Assembly: GCA_001872605.1 (NCBI GenBank)
Contig: MNXM01000306.1
Location: 6,291-70,290, forward strand
DNA length: 64,000 nt
Source: Armatimonadetes bacterium CG2_30_59_28
GTDB lineage: Bacteria > Armatimonadota > Abditibacteriia > CG2-30-59-28
Direction: 5' to 3'
This document shows positions 584-14,784 of this stretch, in pieces. Every line of letters begins with the position of its first letter. The stretch's first letter is position 1. The notes under the pieces were generated by a model. It had not been told where the DNA came from, did not search any database, and saw only the letters and a list, made by a program, of their open reading frames with translations. Made by a program: the position numbers and the translations under genes.

Positions 584-1394
584 ATTGCCAAAGATATCCG
601 TCATTACTCCTACCCGCAATGCCGCCCTTGACTTGTCGGAGACGATCGAGAGCGTCGCCTGCCAGAGCTTCACGGACAGGGAATTCATCGTGGTCGACGG
701 CGGATCGACCGACGGTACGGTTGCACTGCTGCAGCAGCATGGATATGTGATCGACCGCTGGATCAGCGAACCGGACGACGGCGTCTACGATGCCATCAAC
801 AAAGGGATTGACCTTTCCACGGGAGAGTGGCTCTACTTCCTCGGGGCGGGAGACGAACTGGCGGATGAGAGCGTGCTGGAAAGAGTGTGGGAATGCGGAA
901 TGCGGAATGCGGAACGCGGAACGCGTCCCGAGGGATCGGGATCTCCACTCCGCTTCGAGAGTGTGGAACGCGGAGTACACCCGCTGTTCCTATACGGGGA
1001 CGTAATCTGGGGCGAGTCGGGGCAGCGTTACGATGGGCGATTCTCCAAGCTGAAACTGTGCCGGCAGAACATCTGCCACCAGGCGATCTTCTACCACCGA
1101 AGTCTTTTCGACCGGTTCGGCAAGTTCGACACACAATACGAGGTTTGCGCGGACTGGGCGTTCAATCTGAGGTGCTTCGCTGACCCGGTGGTCAGGCCCA
1201 CCCGTCTGAGCACCGTCGTGGCGAGGTTCAAGGGGGGCGGTCTGAGCAGCAGCGTACAGGATGAGTTTCTCGCGAATCGGGAAGGTCTCATCCGGGGGTT
1301 GGGGTGGCGGTATTGGGCGCTGTACCGGGTGAAGCAGGCTCTCAAGTTCAGACGCAGAACCTTTCCGCTGAAACCGACGGACGGCCTCGGATGA
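501..1394 (+). CDS. family 2 glycosyltransferase (true start probably TTG ~585, just before the 'ISVITPTRN' motif)
   Basis: N-terminal GT-A signature ISVITPTRN...FIVVDGGSTDGT...DDGVYDA; the 501 start overlaps the upstream ORF. Contains an in-frame heptanucleotide tandem repeat at 891-925. Confidence 0.75.
   Translation: MLFVKRSHRNHCEDADCTLRPTSWSSLELPKISVITPTRNAALDLSETIESVACQSFTDREFIVVDGGSTDGTVALLQQHGYVIDRWISEPDDGVYDAINKGIDLSTGEWLYFLGAGDELADESVLERVWECGMRNAERGTRPEGSGSPLRFESVERGVHPLFLYGDVIWGESGQRYDGRFSKLKLCRQNICHQAIFYHRSLFDRFGKFDTQYEVCADWAFNLRCFADPVVRPTRLSTVVARFKGGGLSSSVQDEFLANREGLIRGLGWRYWALYRVKQALKFRRRTFPLKPTDGLG
891..925. repeat. heptanucleotide tandem repeat (GAAYGCG)x5 inside the GT2 coding sequence
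   Basis: gaatgcg gaatgcg gaatgcg gaacgcg gaacgcg read directly at 891-925; unit length is not a multiple of 3. Confidence 0.9.
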
Positions 1395-2299
1395 AGCTCT
1401 CAATCATCATTATCTCTTTCAATTCGCTTCAGCTTTTGAGAGAGTGCCTGCGATCTCTTTTTGCTGAACCTGTTGACTTCGATTCCGAGGTCATCGTGGT
1501 CGACAACGCTTCATCCGATGGATCAACCGACATGGTTCGTGCGGAGTTCCCCCAAGTGCAACTGCTCGAGAATTCCGAGAACGTGGGGTTCGCAGCCGCA
1601 AACAACATCGGGGCCGGGCGAGCCAGAGGACAGTTACTGCTTCTGCTGAATTCCGACGCGCAACTGACGATGGGTGCGGTGAAGGAGTTGGTCGCCTTCA
1701 TGGAACGTCAACCGGCGGCGGGTGTATCCGGTCCGCGCTTGACCTACCCCGATGGCGCATGGCAGCCCAACGGGCTGGCTTTCCCCACTTTCTGGAGTTG
1801 GCTGGCCGAAGTCAGCGGTCTGACTTCGCAGTCATCTCCCAAGCGACTTGTCCCCACTCCCGTTGATGTCGTATCTGGTGCGTGCATGATGGTCCGCCGT
1901 GCGGCGTGGGAGGCTCTCGGCGGTTTTGACGATGGCTTCTTCTTCTACTGGGAGGATTACGACTTGTGCCGTCGAATTTGGGCACATGGGTGGGAGGTCT
2001 GGTACTGTCCGCAGGCGCACATTGTACATCTCGCTGGAGGCAGCAGCACGCTGGTTCGCTCGATGACTCGCGATGCGGCATCCGAGAGCACGCTTCGCTA
2101 TTTCCGCAAACACCATTCCCGGTGTGTTCTGCTGGCCGTCCTTGCAGTGTTAGTGCTCCGGGAAATCATGAGAATGGGGCAAGGGATGGTGTCGAGACGT
2201 AAGACCCCACGCCACAACCCTTTCGCGCAACTCTTGAGCCGTTTCGCCGCGGTGCAACGTCTCGAAGCGCCTCACCCCAAGAGGGGGCAAGGTGAATGA
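1391..2299 (+). CDS. family 2 glycosyltransferase (rhamnosyltransferase/WbbL-like)
   Basis: MKLSIIIISFN...VIVVDNASSDGS...; ATGA overlap with upstream stop at 1394. The track ORF start (1304) is a spurious 5' extension. Confidence 0.8.
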   Translation: MKLSIIIISFNSLQLLRECLRSLFAEPVDFDSEVIVVDNASSDGSTDMVRAEFPQVQLLENSENVGFAAANNIGAGRARGQLLLLLNSDAQLTMGAVKELVAFMERQPAAGVSGPRLTYPDGAWQPNGLAFPTFWSWLAEVSGLTSQSSPKRLVPTPVDVVSGACMMVRRAAWEALGGFDDGFFFYWEDYDLCRRIWAHGWEVWYCPQAHIVHLAGGSSTLVRSMTRDAASESTLRYFRKHHSRCVLLAVLAVLVLREIMRMGQGMVSRRKTPRHNPFAQLLSRFAAVQRLEAPHPKRGQGE

Positions 2300-3162
2300 G
2301 ACCGCCGGAGCAAATGCCGCTGACGGCGGCCTACGAGGCCGTCTGGCGCAAGCAGAGCGACTCTGCAAGCGTAGAGTGCCTTCTGTCCCGACGCCGAGAG
2401 CATGCCCGCGACTTGCAGACGTTCTATGGCCGGTGCTTGGGCAGACTTTCTACGTCCTGCCCCAAGTGCTTGGAGGTTGCTTGCGGCACGGCAATTCAGT
2501 CCTACTTTCTCGCTGAAATCGATGGTGTGCAAACCGTCGCACTGGACTTGGTTCCCGCGGCGATTCGGTTTGCCATTCAATTTGCTTCTCACCTCCCGAA
2601 CCGCCCCCGGTTTCTCGTTGGAGACGCCGCCCGGCTTCCTTTTGCAGATCACTCGTTTGACCTCGTCTTTAGTTGTGGCTTTCTCGAGCACTTCACCGAC
2701 CCGATGCCGTTCATAGAAGAGCAGATGCGGGTTCTCACGCCGAAAGGTGTGTTGGTTATTGATGTGCCGCAGAAGTTCAATCCATACACGTTCGTTAAGC
2801 GGTCCCTGATCAGAAAAGGTAAGTGGGAGTATGGTTGGGAAACCGAGTACGCATACGGAGAGTTGCGGACCCTCGGACACAAACTCGGCCTGCGCGTGGT
2901 GGGGCGCGTTGGGTATGGCTACAACTTGCGGAGAGACGGGGGCATCGGTCTGTTGCGCTACCTACCCAGACGGATTGCAGAACGGACGCACGCCGGCCCG
3001 TTCGGACCGCTCTTCTCCAGTCTGGCAAGTGTAGCGGACCAGTTGTGGGCCGGTCCTGAGCAGAGGTGGGGGCACTTGTTTCTTGTGTCCATCGCGGTGG
3101 CTTTCCAGCGTCGGTGCGATATTGATGACCGTGTCGCTGCGGATTTGCCATTCATAAAATGA
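2296..3162 (+). CDS. class I SAM-dependent methyltransferase
   Basis: Rossmann SAM-binding motif LEVACGTA...; 'LVFSCGFLEHF'; 4-bp overlap with the upstream GT2. Confidence 0.7.
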   Translation: MRPPEQMPLTAAYEAVWRKQSDSASVECLLSRRREHARDLQTFYGRCLGRLSTSCPKCLEVACGTAIQSYFLAEIDGVQTVALDLVPAAIRFAIQFASHLPNRPRFLVGDAARLPFADHSFDLVFSCGFLEHFTDPMPFIEEQMRVLTPKGVLVIDVPQKFNPYTFVKRSLIRKGKWEYGWETEYAYGELRTLGHKLGLRVVGRVGYGYNLRRDGGIGLLRYLPRRIAERTHAGPFGPLFSSLASVADQLWAGPEQRWGHLFLVSIAVAFQRRCDIDDRVAADLPFIK

Positions 3163-3571
3163 CGCGTTTCTCTGACGCTCACTACCATCGGTCTTGCCCT
3201 GAGGACGCGCAGTACGCTGGAACATACGAAAGACCAGAATGCGATAGGCAACTGGATCATTGATCGGCCCGAAATGAAAGTGCACGACTGCACCGTTTGT
3301 GTCGTTGAGTTGAGCAATTACCATCAGTTCGGCGATGGCCTTATCAGACCCGATCACGAATGTTGCTTGTCTGCGGACGTGGATTGCACGGAGTTCGGGG
3401 TCAAGGGCAATAGGAAAATCCATAGCCCTTACCGAGCACGGCAAGGGCTATGCGACAACGCTCAACCTTAAGTTCATTTCCGTTGTTCACGATCAAAATC
3501 TGGCGGAATCAGCCGGGAATATCGGGCACTGACACGCATCACGCGTCCTTCTACGCAGGCAATAACGGACG

Positions 3572-3580
3572 CCCCCCCCC
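3572..3580. repeat. C9 homopolymer tract in intergenic region (G6 tract follows at 3594-3599)
   Basis: gcccccccccctcgg ... tccgggggga read directly. Confidence 0.9.
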
Positions 3581-3738
3581 TCGGATTCATTCCGGGGGGA
3601 TTTGGAGGATTGGCTGGTAGAAGAAGCGCAGACCTAACAATCCGCTCCTACGAGTCGCACGACCGAAACGAGTTCGGTGGGATTCCTCCGAACAGTTTTC
3701 GGAGCTGAGCGAACAAGCACTATCACAAATCTGACTTG

Positions 3739-3745
3739 CCCCCCC
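3739..3745. repeat. C7 homopolymer tract in intergenic region
   Basis: ctgacttgcccccccgttcc read directly. Confidence 0.9.
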
Positions 3746-3855
3746 GTTCCTCCAAAAATGCGGATTTCGAAGTGCGGAATGAATCGCATCCTTCCACGCT
3801 GGATTTTCGTCTCGCGTGACGCCGACAGGTTGGTATGGATGATTCCTCCCGTCAA

Positions 3856-3884
3856 TTGACCCCCCCGAAACACGTTGCTATAAT
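3856..3884 (+). promoter_or_regulatory. near-consensus sigma-70 promoter TTGACC-17nt-TATAAT for galT; the spacer begins with a C7 tract (3860-3866)
   Basis: ttgacc(3856-3861) cccccgaaacacgttgc tataat(3879-3884); RBS ggagcg ~8 nt before ATG 3924. Confidence 0.65.
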
Positions 3885-3923
3885 GGGCTTGCTTTTATTC
3901 TTGCATATTGGAGCGGGCGTCTC

Positions 3924-4961
3924 ATGCCTGAATTGCGTAAGGACCCGGTGGTGGATCGGTGGGTCATCATCGCCACGGAGCGGGGTCAGCGACCGTACGA
4001 TTTCAATCCGGAGCAGGTTACCGCGGGGACCGGTTTCTGCCCTTTCTGTGAGGGCAATGAGAACAAAACCCCTCCAGAAGTCTGGGCCATTCGCAGCTCG
4101 GGAAGCGCCCCAAACTCGCCCGGATGGCAGATAAGGGTGATCCCCAACAAGTTCCCCGCACTGGCGATCGAGGGAGAGCTCAACCGGCAGGGACTGGGAA
4201 TGTTCGACATGATGAACGGCGTCGGCGCTCACGAGATCATCGTCGAGTCGCCGGACCACGGCTGGAAGGTATCTGATGCCTCTGAAAGCAAGCTGTTCGA
4301 TATATTCCGGAGCTACCGAGAGCGCATTACTGACCTGCAGAAGGACACGCGTTTCCGGTATTGCATGGTCTTCCGCAACTACGGCGCGGCCGCGGGAGCC
4401 TCGCTCGCTCATCCGCATTCGCAACTGATTGCGTTGGCGATTACGCCAAAGCGTGTGAAGGAAGAGCTCCATTCCGCCAAGGAGTGGTACCATGAGAAAG
4501 AGCGGTGCATCTTCTGCGACGTGATTCGACAGGAGTTGGTCATGGGAGACCGGGTTGTTTTGGACAATGAGCATTTCGTCGTTCTTTCACCCTTTGCCGC
4601 TCGATTCCCATTCGAGCTGGCGATATACCCCAAACGCCACTGTCACGATTTCACCTTGATGGGAGACGACGAGAGGCGCAGTCTGGCAGGAACTCTCAGG
4701 GAGACCTTGAAGCGCATTGCGGTTACGTTGCAGGACCCTCCCTACAACTACATTCTGCACACCTGCCCCAATACCACGCATGGAACCGGACCGACGCGCG
4801 TGAACTACTGGCTAACTCTGGAGCACGACTTCCACTGGCACCTTGAGATTGTGCCGAGGTTAACACGAATAGCCGGTTTTGAGTGGGGAACCGGATTCTA
4901 CATCAATCCCGTTGCTCCGGAGAATTCGACTCGATTTCTCCGGGAGGCCGAGCTGGAATGA
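3924..4961 (+). CDS. galT: galactose-1-phosphate uridylyltransferase (type 1 GalT, HIT superfamily)
   Basis: Zinc motif FCPFCEGNE; active-site HPH in 'GASLAHPHSQLIA'; ~345 aa is typical. Confidence 0.8.
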   Translation: MPELRKDPVVDRWVIIATERGQRPYDFNPEQVTAGTGFCPFCEGNENKTPPEVWAIRSSGSAPNSPGWQIRVIPNKFPALAIEGELNRQGLGMFDMMNGVGAHEIIVESPDHGWKVSDASESKLFDIFRSYRERITDLQKDTRFRYCMVFRNYGAAAGASLAHPHSQLIALAITPKRVKEELHSAKEWYHEKERCIFCDVIRQELVMGDRVVLDNEHFVVLSPFAARFPFELAIYPKRHCHDFTLMGDDERRSLAGTLRETLKRIAVTLQDPPYNYILHTCPNTTHGTGPTRVNYWLTLEHDFHWHLEIVPRLTRIAGFEWGTGFYINPVAPENSTRFLREAELE

Positions 4962-5003
4962 ACCGCCTGAGGGACGACAAGACGACTGGCACAGGTTGAC
5001 ATC

Positions 5004-7412
5004 ATGGACAACGCTACGGACTACGTAACAGAACTCGGTGAGAGCGGAATCGATCCCGGGGCTCACGCTCAACTCCTCGACTACCTGAAGCAACTCGAGG
5101 CGAACCTGGAGCGGCGGTCAGAAGAATTATCCGCGTTGCAGCGACGGTACAAGGAGCTTTTCGAGGCGGAGCAAAAGAAAACGCAAGAGCTTGCGATGCT
5201 GGCAGAAATCGGGGAAGGCGCGCTCGCCCATCACAACGTTGACGACTACATCCACGCTGCGGTAACGGCAATGCAACGGAATTTCAACTACTTCGATGTT
5301 GCTCTCTTTCTCGTCGATCAAAGCGCGAACGAGGTGGCGCTTCAGAGTCAGTCCGGCGGGTACTGCAGGGCCGCGCAGGAGGGTTACCGTCAATCCCTTG
5401 ATGTCGGTATCGTCGGCTGGGCGGCCACGACCGGAGAAGCGCTGCTCTCCAACAACGTGAAGGAAGAGCCGCGGTTCTACTGCGCCTTTCCGGAAGAGCA
5501 GCGGACGCAATCCGAGCTGTCGGTGCCGATTAAAATTGGTAACATCGTGAGAGGCGTAATCGATGTCCAAAGCCAGAAAGAGAACGCCTTCGCCTCCCGA
5601 GACGTGAGCGTTCTGCAAACGGTCGCCGACCAGATGGCCACGGCCATCGAGAATGCGCAGTTGTACGAGCAAATGGTGCTTCTAAAAAGATTTAGCGAAA
5701 CGATTGTGGCTTCCTTGCCTTCCGCCGTTTTAGTGGTGGATCGAGAATTGAGGCTTGTGCTCGCGAATCGGATATTCTGTGAGGAGGTGGGATCCGAAGA
5801 AGACGAGATCCGTGGGCAGCCCCTCGAAAGTATTCTCAGCCCCGTTCTGCTGCACGATGCAGGACTGCTGGACGCGATTCGCCAGACCATTGAAAGCGGC
5901 CAACCGCTCTGGCTTGGGGACGTAGCCTACCTTTGTGGAACCGGTGAGGAGTGCGTGGCGGATGTCCGTCTGACCCCGCTCGGGACATCGAATGAGGGCC
6001 GGTTACTGATTACCATCCGTGATGTCACGCAGCGAGCTCGACAGATCGCCCAGTTGTCGTTGTTGCACGACATGGGGGGACTCCTGCAGCGGTCACTGGA
6101 TCGGGATAGGCTGCTCTACACTCTGTTGACTTGTATCACGGCCGGCCCGGCTCTTGGGTTCAACCGGGGTTTTGTGTTGCTGCCGGATGAGCAGGGGGAG
6201 AACCTGCGAGGAGAGATGGCCGTGGGGCCGGTCACGGTTGAGGAGGCGCATCGCATCTGGGCGGAAGTCGGGAAGCGACACCGCGGACTCCAGGACCTCG
6301 TGGAGGCCTTCGCTCCTGAACAGATCGAGATGACGGATATTCAGCGACTGGTTTGCGGGATGCGTTTCTCGTTGAAGGAGTCGCCCTCAGCGATCCTCTC
6401 CCGCGTGATGCGGGAGAGCACAACCTTCAGAGTGGCCACCGACGCGGTGCGGCGTGACCTGTGTTACCCATACGGAGACGTCCTGCGAACGCAGGAGTTT
6501 GCCGCGGCGCCTCTCATTGCAGGGAGCCGAATCCTGGGGGTTGTGCTCGCGGATAATGCTTTCAACCAGGAACCGATTGTGGAAGAGGATCTGAAGCTGC
6601 TGACGACGCTCTGTAACCAGGCCGGTCTCGCTATATCCAACGCCATCGCTCACGCGCAGATTGAGGATCATGCCGATGAACTGGCGAAAGCCTACCAACG
6701 ACTGCGGGAGGCGCACCAGGAGCTTGTGCGGCAGGAGAAACTCGTAACCGTTGGAGAGATGGCAGCACGCGTGAGTCATGAAATCCGCAATCCCCTCGCC
6801 ACCATCGGAGGATTTGCCCGGTCGATGCTCAAGAACCCAGACGACGTAAGTCGCGTTAAGAGCGATGCCAGCATCATCGTCGAAGAGGTTGAGGAGTTGG
6901 AGGGGATCTTGGGGAACATGCTCGACCTAACACGTCCCAGCGGGCCCGCGTGTCGGTTGGAAAACGTTAACTCCATCGTGGAACATGCCTGCCTGATGGC
7001 GCGATCCGACTTCCAGAAATACCCCGTCTCGCTGGTGAAGCAACTGGACGACTACCTGCCGGAAGTCTTTGTGGATGCCCGCCAGATACAGCAGGGGTTG
7101 CTGAATGTTATTCGGAATGGACTCCAGGCGATGCCCGAAGGAGGTGAGTTGACGGTGGCTACGGCGTCCGAGGAAGACGGCGTTGTTGTCAGTATCACGG
7201 ACCATGGCGAGGGAATTCCGCCGGATGTCAGGGACAATATCTTTACTCCGTTCTACACCACCAAGGTGCAGGGAACCGGACTCGGGCTGGCCGTGACCAG
7301 AAAGATTATGGACGATCACCACGGCACTATCGAGGCGCAAAGTGAAGAAGGAGTTGGAACGACGTTCATCCTGAAAGTGCCCTACACGCAACCAGTCGAG
7401 GGAACGCCATAG
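5004..7412 (+). CDS. multidomain sensor histidine kinase (GAF-PAS-GAF-HisKA-HATPase_c)
   Basis: H-box HEIRNPLATIGGFARSM; N box LLNVIRNGLQAM; G boxes DHGEGIP / GTGLGLAVTRKIM. Long N-terminal region with GAF- and PAS-like segments. Confidence 0.85.
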   Translation: MDNATDYVTELGESGIDPGAHAQLLDYLKQLEANLERRSEELSALQRRYKELFEAEQKKTQELAMLAEIGEGALAHHNVDDYIHAAVTAMQRNFNYFDVALFLVDQSANEVALQSQSGGYCRAAQEGYRQSLDVGIVGWAATTGEALLSNNVKEEPRFYCAFPEEQRTQSELSVPIKIGNIVRGVIDVQSQKENAFASRDVSVLQTVADQMATAIENAQLYEQMVLLKRFSETIVASLPSAVLVVDRELRLVLANRIFCEEVGSEEDEIRGQPLESILSPVLLHDAGLLDAIRQTIESGQPLWLGDVAYLCGTGEECVADVRLTPLGTSNEGRLLITIRDVTQRARQIAQLSLLHDMGGLLQRSLDRDRLLYTLLTCITAGPALGFNRGFVLLPDEQGENLRGEMAVGPVTVEEAHRIWAEVGKRHRGLQDLVEAFAPEQIEMTDIQRLVCGMRFSLKESPSAILSRVMRESTTFRVATDAVRRDLCYPYGDVLRTQEFAAAPLIAGSRILGVVLADNAFNQEPIVEEDLKLLTTLCNQAGLAISNAIAHAQIEDHADELAKAYQRLREAHQELVRQEKLVTVGEMAARVSHEIRNPLATIGGFARSMLKNPDDVSRVKSDASIIVEEVEELEGILGNMLDLTRPSGPACRLENVNSIVEHACLMARSDFQKYPVSLVKQLDDYLPEVFVDARQIQQGLLNVIRNGLQAMPEGGELTVATASEEDGVVVSITDHGEGIPPDVRDNIFTPFYTTKVQGTGLGLAVTRKIMDDHHGTIEAQSEEGVGTTFILKVPYTQPVEGTP

Positions 7413-7439
7413 AACTGCGGCTCAAGAGAGCGACCGTCC

Positions 7440-7868
7440 ATGCAATGGAGTGGAAGACGGGTGGGAGACACATACTTCAAGGGAGATGATGCTACCGTGA
7501 AGACAGTTCTGGTGGTCGAGGACCACAAGCACGAGCGTATCCTGTATGAACGTGAGTTGACAGCAGAGGGTTACCGCGTGATTCTGGCTGAGAACGGGAG
7601 GGAAGCGCTCCAAAAGACCCAGGAAGAGCGACCGGATGCGGTGGTGCTGGACATCAACATGCCTCAGATGGATGGTCTTGAGGCGCTGGGAAGGATCCTG
7701 GAAGCGCACCACAAGACACCGGTAATCATCAACACGGCCTACTCCAGCTACAAAGGAAGCTTCATGAGCTGGGCCGCCGACGCTTACGTTATCAAGTCCT
7801 CGGATTTGACCGAGTTGAAGGATCGACTCAGAGAGGCCCTGTCCAGAGGCGAAACGGAAGGTGTGTGA
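7440..7868 (+). CDS. single-domain response regulator (CheY-like receiver); likely GTG start ~7497 with GGGAGA RBS
   Basis: VKTVLVVEDHKHER...DAVVLDINMPQMDGLE...; phospho-acceptor Asp context; no output domain. Confidence 0.8.
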   Translation: MQWSGRRVGDTYFKGDDATVKTVLVVEDHKHERILYERELTAEGYRVILAENGREALQKTQEERPDAVVLDINMPQMDGLEALGRILEAHHKTPVIINTAYSSYKGSFMSWAADAYVIKSSDLTELKDRLREALSRGETEGV

Positions 7869-9123
7869 TTTATTGGCCCCAGTGAGCACACGTCAGTTAC
7901 TCAAAGAAACCATAGCGATGGTTCTGGCAGGTGGGCAGGGCGAACGTCTCCATCCTCTGACAAAAGACCGCGCCAAACCCGCGGTGCCTTTTGGGGGCAT
8001 CTATCGTCTCATCGACTTCACTCTGTCAAACTGCCTCAATTCCGGTATCCGCAAGATCAACGTTCTAACGCAATACAAGTCCTACTCGCTGGCGCGCCAC
8101 TTGAGGATGGGATGGAGTGTCTTCAACAGCGAGCTGAACGAATTCCTGGAGGTGATCCCTCCGCAGCAGCGTTACACCGAGCGCTGGTATCAGGGAACAG
8201 CCGACGCGATTTTTCAGAATATTTACTCACTGGAATTGGAACGTCCCCGGCTCGTGCTGATTCTTTCGGGGGACCACATCTACAAGATGGACTATCGGGA
8301 GTTGATCCGCGCCCATCGAGACAAGGAAGCAGGATTGACCGTCGCGTGCGTGGAGGCCCCGGTGAACGACGCGCGCAGGTTGGGTGTGGCCCAGGTGGAC
8401 AACGACAGTCGCATTACCGGCTTCCAGGAGAAGCCCCTCAACCCGCAGCCTATGCCAGGCGACCCCGAGCATTGTCTCGCCTCGATGGGTGTGTACCTCT
8501 TTGACTGCGGGGTGCTTGTGCAGCGCGTGATCGAGGATATGAAAACCGACAGCGACCACGACTTCGGGAAGAACATCATCCCTCGAATGATTGAGACCGA
8601 TCGTGTCTACGCATGGAACTTTAAAGACGAGAACCGAAAGACCGTCAAGTACTGGAGGGACATTGGCACGCTGGACAGCTATTACGACGCCAACATGGAT
8701 CTGGTGCAGATCGACCCGCTCTTCAATTTGTATGACGAGGGGTGGCCGGTCCGCACGTACCAGCATCAGCGTCCTCCGGCCAAGACGGCCTTCGAGGAAC
8801 CGGGCACAGGCAGGACGGGAAACGTGTTCAACTCAATCATGTCGAGCGGTTGCATTGTTTCGGGTGCGACGGTTCGTCGCTCCATCCTTTCGCCCAGCGT
8901 GTTTGTTCATAGCTACGCAACCATTGAGGACTCCATTCTGATGGAGAATGTGGAGGTTCATCGTCATGCCCGCATCCGACGCGCCATTATTGACAAGCAA
9001 GTCGCCATCCCCGAGGAAGAGGAGATCGGGTACAACTCCGACATCGACAGGAAGCGTTTTACCGTCACCGAGTCCGGTCTTGTCGTCATTCCCAAGGGCA
9101 TGTCGTTGAGGAACACTCCGTGA
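7861..9123 (+). CDS. glgC: glucose-1-phosphate adenylyltransferase (ADP-glucose pyrophosphorylase)
   Basis: MVLAGGQGERLHPLTKDRAKPAVPFGGIYRLIDFTLSNCLNSGI closely matches the GlgC N-terminus. Alternative start at 7918. Confidence 0.85.
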   Translation: MCDLLAPVSTRQLLKETIAMVLAGGQGERLHPLTKDRAKPAVPFGGIYRLIDFTLSNCLNSGIRKINVLTQYKSYSLARHLRMGWSVFNSELNEFLEVIPPQQRYTERWYQGTADAIFQNIYSLELERPRLVLILSGDHIYKMDYRELIRAHRDKEAGLTVACVEAPVNDARRLGVAQVDNDSRITGFQEKPLNPQPMPGDPEHCLASMGVYLFDCGVLVQRVIEDMKTDSDHDFGKNIIPRMIETDRVYAWNFKDENRKTVKYWRDIGTLDSYYDANMDLVQIDPLFNLYDEGWPVRTYQHQRPPAKTAFEEPGTGRTGNVFNSIMSSGCIVSGATVRRSILSPSVFVHSYATIEDSILMENVEVHRHARIRRAIIDKQVAIPEEEEIGYNSDIDRKRFTVTESGLVVIPKGMSLRNTP

Positions 9124-9193: not shown

Positions 9194-9223
9194 TTGACCG
9201 ACGCCCCATTCATTGCATATACT
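9194..9223 (+). promoter_or_regulatory. candidate sigma-70 promoter TTGACC-18nt-TATACT upstream of the sigma/GGDEF gene
   Basis: ttgacc(9194-9199) gacgccccattcattgca tatact(9218-9223). Confidence 0.4.
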
Positions 9224-9297: not shown

Positions 9298-10626
9298 ATG
9301 AGGAGTAGCGCCTTGGCCCGTCGCTCGATGATCCAAGCCACGACGGCAACAAACGTCAGCGCCGTCAACCGATTCGGGGAGTATGTTGAGACGCGCGACC
9401 CGGCGTTGCGCGACGAACTTGTCCTTGAGCATCTGACGCTGGTCGAGAAGCTGTCACGACGATACGCCAATCTGGGAGAGCCTCTGGAGGATCTCGTCCA
9501 GGAAGGCTACATTGGTCTGATCAAAGCCGTCGATCAGTTCAACCCGAAGATGAGCGTGAAGTTTACGACGTATGCGACCCACGTGGTCTCCGGCGAGATT
9601 CGGCACTACCTTCGCGACCTTGGCAGATTGATCAAGGAACCCGCGTGGCTGGTTGAGTTGCGGTTCCGGGTCAACCGTTCCGCGGATGAATTGTCCCAGC
9701 GACTGGGACGTTCCCCCACCGCCGAGGAGATTGCTGAGGAGCTGGGCATCCCGGAAGAGGACGTTGCCGAGGTGGCAACAACCCGAACGATTTTTCAGGT
9801 GGCGTCGCTGGACGCAGGTAGTCCCTCGGACGATGGCGACGATTCCATCTCTGCCATCGCCGAACGCATCGCGGACGTCCGTGAGGGGTTCGCTACCCCG
9901 CTGGAGGAGAGAATGGTTCTGCGCCAGGCAGTCCGCAGGCTGCGGAAGCTGGAGCGCTCCGTTATCTATCATTTCTTCTATCAGGAGCATACCAAAACAG
10001 AGATCGCGCGCAAGCTGGACATCTCCGTCAATTACGTGTCCTACCTGATCGGACGGGGATTGAATAACATGAAACAGATGCTGATTCGGGAAGAACGAAA
10101 CGAAGCCGTGCTGAGGCTTGAATTCATGGAGGCCCGCCTGACAGCCGAAGAGGGGCAGCTCGACGATTCGGCGATGGTTGATGAAACCACTGGACTTTAC
10201 TGCCGTGCCTTCTTCGAGCGGCTGCTACAGGACGAGGTGGCGCGGGCGAGGCGGTACGAGATTGAGTTCTCCTTCATCGTTCTTGTCGTCAGGGAATGGG
10301 CGCCGCTTGTGGAAAAGGTCACGGAAAGGGAGAAGGAAAAGCTTCTGCAACGTCTCGCGGATCTGCTGAAGAGGTCGCTTCGGGACGTCGACCGCATATC
10401 CTACTACGGTCAGGGCCGATTTGGCGCTATTCTTCCACACACTGGAGCGAACGCGGACGTCGTCTCAAAGCGAATATTGAGCCAGTTGCAGGGACATGAC
10501 ATCCGACCCCCGCGGCTGAAGTCAATCCCGCCGCCACACCTCGTGTGCAACGTCTACGCTTATCCCAAAGATGCCGCGACGGCAGAAGAGTTGATCGCCC
10601 TCCTGGAAGAGACTGACCGATCGTAG
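9298..10626 (+). CDS. RNA polymerase sigma factor (SigB/F/G-type, sigma-70 group 3) fused to a C-terminal degenerate GGDEF-like domain
   Basis: Region 2 'DLVQEGYIGLIKAVDQFNP...FTTYATHVVSGEIRHYLRD'; region 4 HTH 'TKTEIARKLDISVNYVSYLIGRGLNNMKQ'. C-terminus 'DETTGLYCRAFFERLL...RDVDRISYYGQGRFGAILPHT' aligns to the GGDEF fold with GGEEF replaced by GQGRF. Confidence 0.65.
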   Translation: MRSSALARRSMIQATTATNVSAVNRFGEYVETRDPALRDELVLEHLTLVEKLSRRYANLGEPLEDLVQEGYIGLIKAVDQFNPKMSVKFTTYATHVVSGEIRHYLRDLGRLIKEPAWLVELRFRVNRSADELSQRLGRSPTAEEIAEELGIPEEDVAEVATTRTIFQVASLDAGSPSDDGDDSISAIAERIADVREGFATPLEERMVLRQAVRRLRKLERSVIYHFFYQEHTKTEIARKLDISVNYVSYLIGRGLNNMKQMLIREERNEAVLRLEFMEARLTAEEGQLDDSAMVDETTGLYCRAFFERLLQDEVARARRYEIEFSFIVLVVREWAPLVEKVTEREKEKLLQRLADLLKRSLRDVDRISYYGQGRFGAILPHTGANADVVSKRILSQLQGHDIRPPRLKSIPPPHLVCNVYAYPKDAATAEELIALLEETDRS

Positions 10627-12164: not shown

Positions 12165-13770
12165 AACAGACGCTCCGCGCCCGACGGCTGCACTGCCCCG
12201 TCGCGTCGCTATTGCTTGCGGACTATCAAGACGCCGACGTCCCTTACTGACTTTCGGTTGCTTCGTTGTGGCGCTGGCGGCCGTTCTGGGAGGATATGTA
12301 TCCAGGAGCGGTCCGAGTCGGGCAAAGTACATTCTCGGTGGGGTGCGGGTGCGGTCCATCGAGGTGGGGGGGCTGAACCCAACCGAGGCAAAGAGTCGAC
12401 TCGAGTCGTCGCTGCCGACCCCGTCCAAGGCGGAGGTCGAATTCGTCGAGGACGCGCGCCGTTTCGCTGCAGCTTGGCCAGACCTCGGCATCGGGTACGA
12501 CTATGAGGCGACCATTGCGAACGCGGTGGCTGTCGGTCGGCGAGAACCGCTGACCTCACGGCTGCGGGATCGCTTCGCCCTGATGACCCGGGGTATCACC
12601 GTCCCCGTTCAATACTCGTGCAATACGGACGCGACCGAAGCCTGGTTCACCGCTCTTGCCGCCGAGATTGACGAAGAACCCATTGATGCAGGGGCCACAT
12701 GGCGCAACGGTGGCATTGAACTCACCCCCGGGAAGGAAGGCCGCAAGCTGGATGTCAAAGGGATGACGACGGCATTGATCAACCACAGCAAGCGGGGGCG
12801 TGTGCCCAAGCAGATGGCCATTGCCATGCGCCCATCCCCACCGCGCGTGCGCCGAGCTGATCTTGCCACTCTTGAGACGGTGATCAGTCGGTACTCGACT
12901 CCTTTCAACCCCGCGAGAAAGAGCCGGACCCAGAATATGAAACTGGCCGTTCAGTCTATCGATGGGGAACTGATTCGCCCGGGGGAGACCTTCTCCTATA
13001 ACCGGTGTGTGGGCCCCCGGCTGGAGAGGTATGGCTATCTGCCGGCTCCCATATTTTCCGATGACGAGGTCGTCCAGGGAGTTGGCGGTGGAATCTGTCA
13101 GGTCGCCACGACTATCTACAATACCGCCCTGTTTTCGGGGATCGAAATAGTGACTCGATCACACCACAGCCGTCCCATCGACTACGCCCCGAGAGGCCGG
13201 GACGCCACCGTGTATTTCGGGAATACCGACCTGAGATTTCGGAACAACACCTCTCTGCCGATCTATATCCGCGTCTACATTGGCGGGAGTCGTGTCTACT
13301 GCGATTTTTACGGCAGTAAATCGCAGGAGAAGAAGGTCTCCTTGCAGTGTACCGAGGACGTTCGTGTGGAACCGATCGAGGAACGGACGGACGACCCGGG
13401 AATCCCTGAAGGGGAAGAAGTTGTGGATGACGAAGGTCGTCCTGGATTCCGGACGACGATAGTGCGGACTATAGGACCCTCGGGACCTGCGGGAAGGGAA
13501 CGGCGGGAAGTCGTTTCCAGGGACTTCTACCGTCCACGAACGCGCAAAATCCGGGTGGGAACTTCCCCGGCAACGACGGCCATGCCTTCTGATGGCTCGG
13601 TGAAGCTGCCACCATCTTCCCATTATGGAACGGCCCAATCGGGGTCGACAGGCTCTCCAACGGCGCCGAAGCTGCCGGGAGCAGGAGGCAAACCAGTTCC
13701 ACGGAAGGCGCCCAAATCCCCGGGATTGCGTGTTGAGGACCTTGGCAGTCCCTCGCCCCCACATCGTTGA
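12136..13770 (+). CDS. VanW family protein with signal-anchor, G5-like region and Pro/Ser-rich C-terminal tail
   Basis: VanW core 'GETFSYNRCVGPR...GGGICQVATTIYNTALFSGIEIVTRSHHS...DATVY'. The track ORF 11782..13770 is a 5' extension overlapping cysS; first Met after the cysS frame is at 12136 (29-bp overlap with cysS). Confidence 0.75.
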   Translation: MERLGAERTKTDAPRPTAALPRRVAIACGLSRRRRPLLTFGCFVVALAAVLGGYVSRSGPSRAKYILGGVRVRSIEVGGLNPTEAKSRLESSLPTPSKAEVEFVEDARRFAAAWPDLGIGYDYEATIANAVAVGRREPLTSRLRDRFALMTRGITVPVQYSCNTDATEAWFTALAAEIDEEPIDAGATWRNGGIELTPGKEGRKLDVKGMTTALINHSKRGRVPKQMAIAMRPSPPRVRRADLATLETVISRYSTPFNPARKSRTQNMKLAVQSIDGELIRPGETFSYNRCVGPRLERYGYLPAPIFSDDEVVQGVGGGICQVATTIYNTALFSGIEIVTRSHHSRPIDYAPRGRDATVYFGNTDLRFRNNTSLPIYIRVYIGGSRVYCDFYGSKSQEKKVSLQCTEDVRVEPIEERTDDPGIPEGEEVVDDEGRPGFRTTIVRTIGPSGPAGRERREVVSRDFYRPRTRKIRVGTSPATTAMPSDGSVKLPPSSHYGTAQSGSTGSPTAPKLPGAGGKPVPRKAPKSPGLRVEDLGSPSPPHR

Positions 13771-14046
13771 CCGGCACCAAATGCGTTCCCAATATCGGGG
13801 GATTCCCCCCGACGGCGGTTTGACTTTCTACTACGCGCTCATTATAATCACCGATGTCAACTGGAATTCGTGCCAAAGGGCCGGGGGGCCCGAGGGGAGG
13901 TGCTGCCAGCTAAACAGCGTCAATGGTTTCGGCCCGGAATGACGTACTGAGGTCAAAGCCGATCAACAGAGCAACGTCACAATAGAACATTATACCCGGC
14001 GCGCCCTGCGAAGGCGTGCAGAACTCAGCAAAGGAGAAATAGAAAT

Positions 14047-14784
14047 ATGGCGCCAAAAATGCTCTTGATAGCGCTGGCCATTTCCCTGACAGCCGGCGCG
14101 GTCCTCGCTGACCCGAACTTCTACGGGCAGACAGGACTCACCCTCAACCCCACCGCTGACATTGCAGAACCTGATGAAATTCAGGCCCGGCTGTCGACGA
14201 TGAATCAGGACACAGCGCTCCTGGACGGCAAGTGGTGGGCGGTTTCAGGCAATGGGATCGTGTCGGAGAAGCTGGAGTTGTCCCTCGGATACGTGAACCA
14301 GTCCGACGTTCTCGTAGATGACTCTGGCATCACGGCAGGACTCAAGTACTCGCTGCAGCCGGAAAACGAGAAATCACCCGCGATTGCTCTTGGGGGGATA
14401 TGGGTCAGTTCCATGGACCAGACCGGCGCTTACCTTGTTCTCAGCAAGACGTTAAGCATTGGTGAGGAGAAGATGGGGAAACAGCCCAAGAAAGTGCGTG
14501 GACATTTGGGAATTCGATGGGACGAGTTTTCAGGCGCGGCGGACGAGTCGGACGTGACCGTCTTCGGAGGCCTGAATGCCGGTCTGGGCACCAGCTTGTC
14601 CTTCGAGGGAGAAGTGGGAACCCGGCATAACGTTCAGGCAGAGACCCCCTGGGCTGCGCTGCTCAAGTACCAGATTACCCGTAAGACCTGCGTGAGCGCT
14701 GGGATGGTTCAGACGGGATTTAGTGACGACCCGGAATTCATCATCAGCTTGGGGCAGGTATGGCCCAATCTGGAGATGAAGTAG
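14047..14784 (+). CDS. hypothetical secreted protein (signal peptide)
   Basis: MAPKMLLIALAISLTAGAVLA signal peptide; AGGAGA RBS 7 nt upstream; no recognisable catalytic motif. Confidence 0.5.
   Translation: MAPKMLLIALAISLTAGAVLADPNFYGQTGLTLNPTADIAEPDEIQARLSTMNQDTALLDGKWWAVSGNGIVSEKLELSLGYVNQSDVLVDDSGITAGLKYSLQPENEKSPAIALGGIWVSSMDQTGAYLVLSKTLSIGEEKMGKQPKKVRGHLGIRWDEFSGAADESDVTVFGGLNAGLGTSLSFEGEVGTRHNVQAETPWAALLKYQITRKTCVSAGMVQTGFSDDPEFIISLGQVWPNLEMK

Follow-up and report, generated by a model that had tools for sequence, protein, structure and literature searches.

A probable extended -10 promoter of galT with a constant C7 tract, and a separate length-variable C tract, in a groundwater Armatimonadetes population

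Extended -10 promoters, exemplified among sigma-70 promoters by galP1 of Escherichia coli, carry the motif TGnTATAAT and are less dependent on the -35 element. The homopolymeric tracts of the porA and opc promoters are ~9-14 nt long and polymorphic both between and within strains. Both promoters, with a poly-G and a poly-C tract, respectively, are described as phase-variable in Neisseria meningitidis in PMC5084427 (citing van der Ende 1995 and Sarkari 1994), which also lists the TAAA tract of nadA as a distal promoter repeat (Metruccio 2009). Previous work on GC-rich Bordetella has shown that only C/G tracts longer than 8 nt exceed chance and that instability grows with length (PMC1891110, PMC5084427). 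In most strains of Bordetella pertussis the fimX promoter has a C7 tract, and transcription is 3.8-fold lower in a C8 variant, while the C-stretches of fim2 and fim3 comprise 10-18 C; the fim C-stretch separates the site of the activator BvgA from the -10 element (PMC1891110). Long tracts are also known to be prone to errors caused by slippage in PCR and sequencing (PMC1891110).

The DNA analysed here, a 64-kb stretch referred to as the window, stems from an uncultivated groundwater Armatimonadetes population of the CG2_30_59_28 type and contains a galT-family gene on the plus strand (3924-4961, 345 aa). The encoded protein features CPFC and HPH motifs, matches the Pfam GalP_UDP_transf N and C domains plus DUF4921, and scores above the NCBIfam galT equivalog cut-off (TIGR00209; 123.8 vs 102.1). 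The identical protein is listed under the names Armatimonadetes bacterium CG2_30_59_28 and Armatimonadota bacterium, and numerous contigs of groundwater metagenomes (JGI, ENA, Logan and NCBI, GCA_002780095.1) encode the same GalT. Analysis of open reading frames and Pfam domains placed three further plus-strand genes 3' of galT, coding for a GAF-PAS histidine kinase (5004-7412), a response regulator (7440-7868) and a glgC-like ADP-glucose pyrophosphorylase (7861-9123). Judging from their spacing, galT and these three genes probably form one operon extending to 9123, and the next promoter-like site 3' of the set in a window-wide promoter scan lies at 9194. On the other side of galT, a same-strand cluster of glycosyltransferases and polysaccharide sugar-modifying enzymes ends with a class I SAM methyltransferase gene as its last member (2296-3162, plus strand; assigned from ORFs and Pfam). 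Between the methyltransferase stop (3162) and galT (3924) lies a non-coding gap of 761 bp, in a window whose coding density was crudely estimated at ~89%. With a GC content of 0.535, the gap lies below the window (0.581) and the genes on either side (0.57-0.58); the lower value, to which an earlier note on this DNA had drawn attention, is a normal intergenic dip.

Direct reading and a consensus scan of the plus strand immediately upstream of galT revealed the -35 hexamer TTGACC (3856-3861; 5/6 matches to TTGACA), a spacer of 17 nt (3862-3878) that includes the TG of an extended -10 motif (3876-3877; TGcTATAAT), and a perfect -10 hexamer TATAAT (3879-3884; 6/6). A distance of 39 nt separates the end of the -10 hexamer from the galT ATG at 3924, and a GGAG ribosome-binding site (3910-3913) is located 10 nt before the ATG. 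The earlier note had described TTGACC-17-TATAAT as a near-perfect sigma-70 promoter with a GGAG site ahead of galT, a description that is borne out by these data and to which the TG motif, which it did not mention, can be added. With 11/12 matching positions, the site was the only promoter-like match of the consensus scan in the region 2500-5000 on both strands. Throughout the 64-kb window, sites of this quality occur twice on both strands taken together (3856 and 13820) vs 0.2 in shuffled sequences, and four of the five sites scoring at least 10/12 stand just 5' of gene starts. As sites of 10/12 and better are mostly located 5' of genes and those of 11/12 are in excess, the organism evidently uses the TTGACA/TATAAT consensus.

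Relatives of intermediate distance suitable for phylogenetic footprinting were not found, since GalT identity drops from 98-100% within the same population directly to 76%. The locus at this distance, from an Armatimonadetes groundwater MAG (L012), features TTGACG-18-TATAAT located 57 nt before galT with the spacer CTCCTTTCCGCCCGCTGA, and a second locus from a member of the Abditibacteriales (L013; GalT 64% identical) features TTGACT-18-TATAAT 60 nt before galT. Both promoters score 11/12, and loci more distant than these two mostly lack such a promoter upstream of galT. The sequence of the 761-bp gap could not be aligned to that of L012; the position of the promoter is kept in both relatives, which supports a function of the galT promoter. 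The earlier note had suggested looking for homopolymers upstream of orthologous galT genes; a C tract is absent from the promoters of L012 and L013, and the spacer of L013 holds a T6 homopolymer.

The segment 3856-3884 thus unites what is expected of a sigma-70-type promoter, namely matching hexamers, a spacer within 17 +/- 1 nt, the TG motif and a conserved placement close to a gene. Based on the near-consensus hexamers, the 17-nt spacer, the TG motif, the Shine-Dalgarno sequence and the matching promoters in two relatives, we consider it to be very probably a working housekeeping-type promoter of galT. It is probably a new, unremarkable member of a well-known promoter class in an uncultivated Armatimonadetes host, as it shares with extended -10 promoters the TG and the consensus -10 hexamer, in combination with a near-consensus -35 hexamer, a 17-nt spacer and a short leader with a Shine-Dalgarno sequence. 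Unlike galP1, the galT promoter also has a good -35 element.

Within this promoter, a C7 tract (3860-3866, plus strand) takes in the final two bases of the -35 hexamer and runs on over the first five spacer positions. The earlier note had correctly placed the tract at the junction of the two elements, although its division into one hexamer base and six spacer bases needs to be corrected. Its slippage geometry is sound: gain or loss of one C would change the spacer to 18 or 16 nt and leave TTGACC unaltered. The tract thus overlaps the core elements in the way known from phase-variable promoters. As in porA and opc, a G/C homopolymer is found between -35 and -10 and slippage would alter the spacer, and, as in fim2, fim3 and fimX, a poly-C run lies within a promoter of a GC-rich bacterium. 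At 7 nt, the tract falls below the threshold of more than 8 nt that applies to C/G tracts in Bordetella, where the C7/C8 of fimX is nonetheless polymorphic.

Three additional plus-strand tracts in the gap were found where the earlier note had reported them, i.e. a C9 tract (3572-3580) ~275 nt upstream of the -35 hexamer, a G6 tract (3594-3599) and a second C7 tract (3739-3745). In shuffles of the 761-bp gap, at least four G/C runs of at least 6 nt were obtained in 0.05% of trials (P ~5e-4), and at least three runs of at least 7 nt in 0.005% (P ~5e-5). For the whole window the picture is the reverse, with G/C runs of at least 6 nt being depleted (26 observed vs 54 expected). Runs of at least 9 nt number one in 64 kb vs 1.4 expected, and the C9 tract alone is unremarkable at this scale. 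A crude gene map assigns 8 of the 26 G/C runs to the 11% of bases that are non-coding; half of these eight are located in the galT gap, and six of the eight adjoin the two 11/12 promoters. This clustering by the best promoters hints at something non-random about runs near promoters. A second promoter built on the C7 tract at 3739-3745 (CTGACT-17-AAAAAT) was considered and rejected, as it reaches only 8/12, a score that several sites within the 536 nt scanned attain by chance. Pairing of the G6 tract with the 3' portion of the C9 tract can form a 9-bp hairpin with a 5-nt loop, a fold no better than that of shuffled sequences (z -0.2).

Tract lengths were compared among 21 independent assemblies of the locus, which were obtained from exact-protein look-ups and one metagenome pattern scan. 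The pattern scan for further tract alleles contributed one extra contig, and a later protein look-up yielded no new assemblies. Alignment of 14 of the assemblies to the window over 6.2 kb gave a background variation of ~10 SNP positions and two deletions, of 7 bp and 1 bp. The promoter C7 was identical in all 20 assemblies covering it, each of which contained the promoter string TTGACCCCCCCGAAACACGTTGCTATAAT, at the level of a consensus that reports the majority allele per sample and in which a C6 or C8 subpopulation below ~50% would stay invisible. The C7 tract at 3739 and the G6 tract were constant in 21/21 assemblies, as were, wherever covered, the control runs T7 at 460, G6 at 1232, G6 at 6074, C6 at 11469 and G7 at 12366. 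Hence, none of the runs of up to 7 nt that were checked (three in the gap and five controls) differs between assemblies, in contrast to the run of 9 nt: the 21 assemblies comprise one AC8, seven C9, eight C10 and five C11 alleles. These lengths are mixed within SNP backgrounds, with C9, C11 and C9 occurring together with 3380G and C9 and C10 with 5137C. The polymorphism of the C9 tract is therefore far above background and present on different backgrounds, as expected for a contingency locus, while a technical origin is possible given that the window has no other run of this length to serve as a technical control. The contrast between the invariant C7, G6 and control runs and the variable C9 tract identifies the latter, and not the promoter tract, as the sole hypermutable site of the region. 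The poly-C length variants that the earlier note had proposed to look for were thus recovered for the C9 tract (8-11 C) and were absent, at assembly consensus level, from the promoter C7, the second C7 and the G6 tract. Unlike porA and opc, the galT promoter has a tract of 7 nt identical in 20/20 assemblies and precedes a metabolic operon rather than an outer-membrane antigen gene, and, unlike the fim promoters, its C7 is without a variant allele in the assemblies.

The surroundings of the C9 tract were searched for elements on which its length could act. Rfam gave no match at the gathering threshold in the whole window, nor at E<=1 over 3100-4000, and neither tRNA nor tmRNA genes were found. 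A six-frame Pfam search of the gap returned only a sub-threshold match to DUF6158 (E 0.048); the small ORFs of the gap have no Pfam, NCBIfam or PHROGs match, and those spanning the C9 tract exhibit non-coding-like codon scores. Promoter-like sites in 3400-3935 do not exceed 8/12 on either strand once the galT promoter is set aside, and no real gene was found whose frame or promoter would be altered by the tract. A mobile or repeated element was dismissed, since blastn against the window and 59 related loci matched only the gap's own hairpin, and a repeat search of the gap gave only short two-copy matches. Likewise, a structured RNA reaching from the C9 tract to the second C7 (241 nt) was rejected based on fold z-scores of -2.0 for the plus and -1.5 for the minus strand; orthologues suitable for covariation were not found. 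The region is bordered by nested, perfect inverted repeats (11 and 9 nt). As no recognisable promoter, conserved ORF or known RNA surrounds the C9 tract, its variation is most likely selectively neutral, and we regard neutral slippage or a sequencing effect as the most likely source of the length differences. The tract resembles the nadA repeat in that both are simple repeats of variable length lying in intergenic DNA 5' of a core promoter, and differs from it in its distance of ~275 nt from the -35 hexamer and in that all lengths are similarly common.

On the minus strand, a hairpin with a 14-bp stem (3421-3452) is more stable (-28.1 kcal/mol, z -5.45) than its counterpart on the plus strand (-21.6 kcal/mol, z -4.25). 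It is followed 3' on the minus strand by GAUUUUCCUAUU, a U-rich tail, whereas the plus strand is devoid of a U-run. From this arrangement, the hairpin looks like a terminator of an unannotated minus-strand transcript; a minus-strand gene or promoter upstream of it was not found. The hairpin also contains the ATG of an orphan minus-strand ORF of 153 aa (2962-3423), which is called by some pipelines and shares 201 nt with the 3'-terminal part of the methyltransferase gene. Searched exhaustively with HMMER against 1.84 billion representative proteins, the ORF matched only itself, and no Pfam, NCBIfam or PHROG match was obtained. Its non-overlapping part has a borderline codon score of 0.145, with real genes at 0.22 +/- 0.12, and the ORF is probably not a conserved gene. 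In view of the lack of relatives, we regard it as doubtful and not as a gene under control of the tract.

Taken together, we consider it probable that the region holds an ordinary strong promoter of the galT operon with a fixed C7 tract, and that the separate slippage-prone run of 9-11 C drifts without visible consequence. The segment 3856-3884 would then function as a strong extended -10 promoter of the housekeeping sigma factor (sigma-70-type) with a predicted transcription start near 3891, driving galT and probably also the three genes that follow (histidine kinase, response regulator and glgC). The C7 at the junction of -35 and spacer would be a stable part of the promoter instead of a slippage switch, with the 17-nt spacing fixed in the population. 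A one-base gain would create an 18-nt spacer as in the closest relatives, a change for which the TG motif should confer tolerance, and the C9 tract would vary between 8 and 11 C by slipped-strand mispairing in non-coding DNA, presumably in a neutral fashion. The clustering of G/C runs in the gap beyond chance and the T6 in the spacer of L013 count against such an ordinary explanation, which also leaves three features unexplained, namely the varying length of the C9-11 tract, the concentration of G/C runs at the two best promoters and the terminator-like hairpin of the minus strand. The phase-variable promoter proposed in the earlier note, in which the promoter C7 slips by one C to give spacers of 16, 17 or 18 nt and thereby heritable, reversible switching between high and low expression of the galT operon, is in our view very unlikely. 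It would profit from a tract that spans the junction such that a one-C change alters spacer length only, from the documented fimX C7/C8 polymorphism with its effect on expression (PMC1891110), from the accumulation of G/C runs in the gap and from the adjacent polysaccharide glycosyltransferase cluster. However, none of 20 assemblies carries a C7 variant, while a longer tract 280 nt away varies in the same contigs, and the C tract is missing from the orthologous promoters, which have 18-nt spacers. A +1 slip in the C7 of the window would accordingly give a spacing already used by the clade, and these 18-nt spacers together with the TG motif suggest that a one-C change would shift promoter strength at most modestly rather than switch it on or off. 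The tract is moreover shorter than the more than 8 nt associated with an excess of C/G tracts or rapid switching in GC-rich Bordetella (PMC1891110), and the genes behind it constitute a metabolic and signalling operon and not a surface antigen locus. As the C7/C8 change in fimX has a 3.8-fold effect, a C7 tract is not dismissible by its length alone, and for this reason we retain a very small probability for a spacer switch.

The remaining alternatives concern the C9 tract. Its C9, C10 and C11 alleles might be technical, arising from polymerase or sequencer slippage and the choices of assemblers, an origin that we consider rather doubtful while granting it an appreciable chance. All evidence on the tract is short-read assembly consensus, no other G/C run in the window is as long as this tract or could serve as a control of equal length, its alleles are independent of the SNP backgrounds, as random error would also yield, and long tracts are known to be subject to slippage in PCR and sequencing (PMC1891110). 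On the other hand, a consensus normally recovers the modal length, three lengths recur in 5-8 assemblies each across JGI, MEGAHIT k141, SPAdes NODE and Logan, and the AC8 assembly shows a base substitution at the tract edge, i.e. a true sequence difference. A technical origin would be compatible with the conclusion of an ordinary galT promoter. Alternatively, the run of 9-11 C could be a functional contingency locus that sets the expression of an unannotated element or, as described for nadA, the helical phasing of a distal regulator. Candidate elements are a minus-strand transcript ending at the 3421-3452 hairpin and the orphan 153-aa ORF. The four alleles in 21 assemblies recurring on different SNP backgrounds, the greater stability of the hairpin on the minus strand with its U-rich tail, the borderline coding score (0.145) of the ORF outside its overlap, the flanking nested inverted repeats of 11 and 9 nt and the precedent of promoter-modulating distal repeats such as nadA (cited in PMC5084427) are all consistent with this possibility. 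We nevertheless judge it unlikely: no promoter-like site better than 8/12 is nearby on either strand, the ORF has no relative in 1.84 billion proteins and its start codon lies inside the hairpin, small ORFs spanning the tract score as non-coding and Rfam gives no match, the fold of the 241-nt region reaches z-scores of only -2.0 (plus) and -1.5 (minus), and lengths of 9, 10 and 11 are all common, as neutral drift would give.

If the interpretation as an ordinary galT promoter is true, the locus provides a clean consensus extended -10 promoter in Armatimonadetes whose position is kept at GalT identities of 64-76%, which would be of modest help for annotating transcription units in a phylum where experimental genetics hardly exists. 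For screening purposes, a 7-nt G/C run in a promoter spacer is not in itself sufficient reason to score a phase-variation switch, because runs of 9-11 nt varied and runs of up to 7 nt did not in the same contigs. The slim prospect that homopolymers and short tandem repeats act as real contingency loci in free-living, non-host-associated groundwater Armatimonadetes would imply that the C9-11 run tunes a minus-strand transcript or the distant galT-kinase-glgC genes, and that the C7 and T6 of the spacers serve in evolution as 'tuning knobs' by which spacers are reset between 17 and 18 nt. The C9-11 tract and a heptanucleotide repeat elsewhere in the window are leads for finding out if any simple-repeat switching takes place in subsurface bacteria. 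The latter, a 7-bp tandem repeat at 890-925 with the unit GGAAYGC, lies within a glycosyltransferase gene and is a better candidate for a contingency locus than the galT promoter or C9 tracts.

Heptanucleotide repeat analysis of the first GT2 glycosyltransferase gene (ORF 501-1394 on the plus strand, called as a 269-aa protein at about 585-1394) revealed a tandem array of the form (GGAATGC)x3 (GGAACGC)x2 within the coding sequence at 890-925 (+), for which TRF reported a period of 7 and 5.1 copies. Comparison of the 18 independent assemblies that span the repeat showed five copies in 17 of them and four copies in the remaining one, L073 (ERZ27293371), a metagenome assembly of the same population. 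The four-copy allele results in a frameshift and splits the GT2 gene into pieces of 137 and 143 aa. Repeats whose unit length is not divisible by 3, when they lie within the gene of a surface-polysaccharide glycosyltransferase, are the textbook arrangement of ON/OFF contingency genes, and the one at 890-925 is a better candidate for phase variation than the galT promoter.

Inspection of orthologous galT promoters showed that the promoter of the Abditibacteriales MAG SKYG70 (L013 4896-4940) features a T6 run within its 18-nt spacer, together with a G6 run ending 8 nt upstream of the -35 element. Overall, a homopolymer of at least 6 nt lies in or at the spacer in two of the three related galT promoters, which could be a coincidence or could reflect slippage that changed the length of the spacer during evolution. 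Besides the galT promoter of the window, a second promoter there matches the consensus at 11 of 12 positions (TTGACT-17-TATAAT, 13820-13848 (+)) and is flanked by runs: 9 nt separate its -35 from the upstream G5ATTC6 (13797-13810 (+)), and a G6 (13883-13888 (+)) lies 34 nt downstream of its -10. It is followed by a leader of about 190 nt and the ORF at 14047, and no match to an Rfam family was obtained. Based on a crude gene map, six of the eight runs in the non-coding DNA of the window adjoin these two best promoters, namely the one in the galT gap and the one at 13820.

The galT gap also contains nested perfect inverted repeats (3584-3609 and 3748-3785), composed of an outer 11-nt pair (GATTCATTCCG / CGGAATGAATC) and an inner 9-nt pair (TTTGGAGGA / TCCTCCAAA), which enclose a stretch of about 140-180 nt located between the G6 tract and the second C7 tract. 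About 0.09 perfect inverted 11-mers are expected by chance, and the fold z-score of the region is only -2.0. Further upstream, a very stable 14-bp hairpin (3421-3452) folds better on the minus strand, where it carries a U-rich tail and where its G.U pairs correspond to A.C mismatches on the plus strand. The element resembles the terminator of a putative unannotated minus-strand RNA crossing the galT upstream region. The hairpin also sequesters the ATG start codon of the 153-aa orphan ORF, and in the independent assembly L074 the G at position 3454, immediately beyond the stem, is missing.

Comparison of the window (2296-3923) with the closest relative, the groundwater MAG locus L012, revealed only about 300 nt between the GT2 gene and galT in the latter (L012 900-1242), so that the methyltransferase gene, together with the larger part of the 761-bp gap, is specific to the population sampled here, consistent with a variable end of the polysaccharide gene cluster. 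On the other side, galT and glgC belong to one gene string in the window (3924-9123), and in the distant locus L058 (4100-5001) glgC lies directly upstream of a galT-family gene. As galT-family genes are thus linked to glgC in distant lineages, these findings suggest that the role of this GalT-like enzyme lies in the metabolism of ADP-glucose/glycogen, not in classical galactose utilisation. Downstream of this string, an ORF at 9298-10626 (+) is predicted from precomputed Pfam hits to carry a GGDEF (diguanylate cyclase) domain at its C terminus in addition to sigma-70 regions 2, 3 and 4, a putative fusion that is unusual, and is preceded by a promoter-like site of its own (TTGACC-18-TATACT, 9194-9223 (+)).
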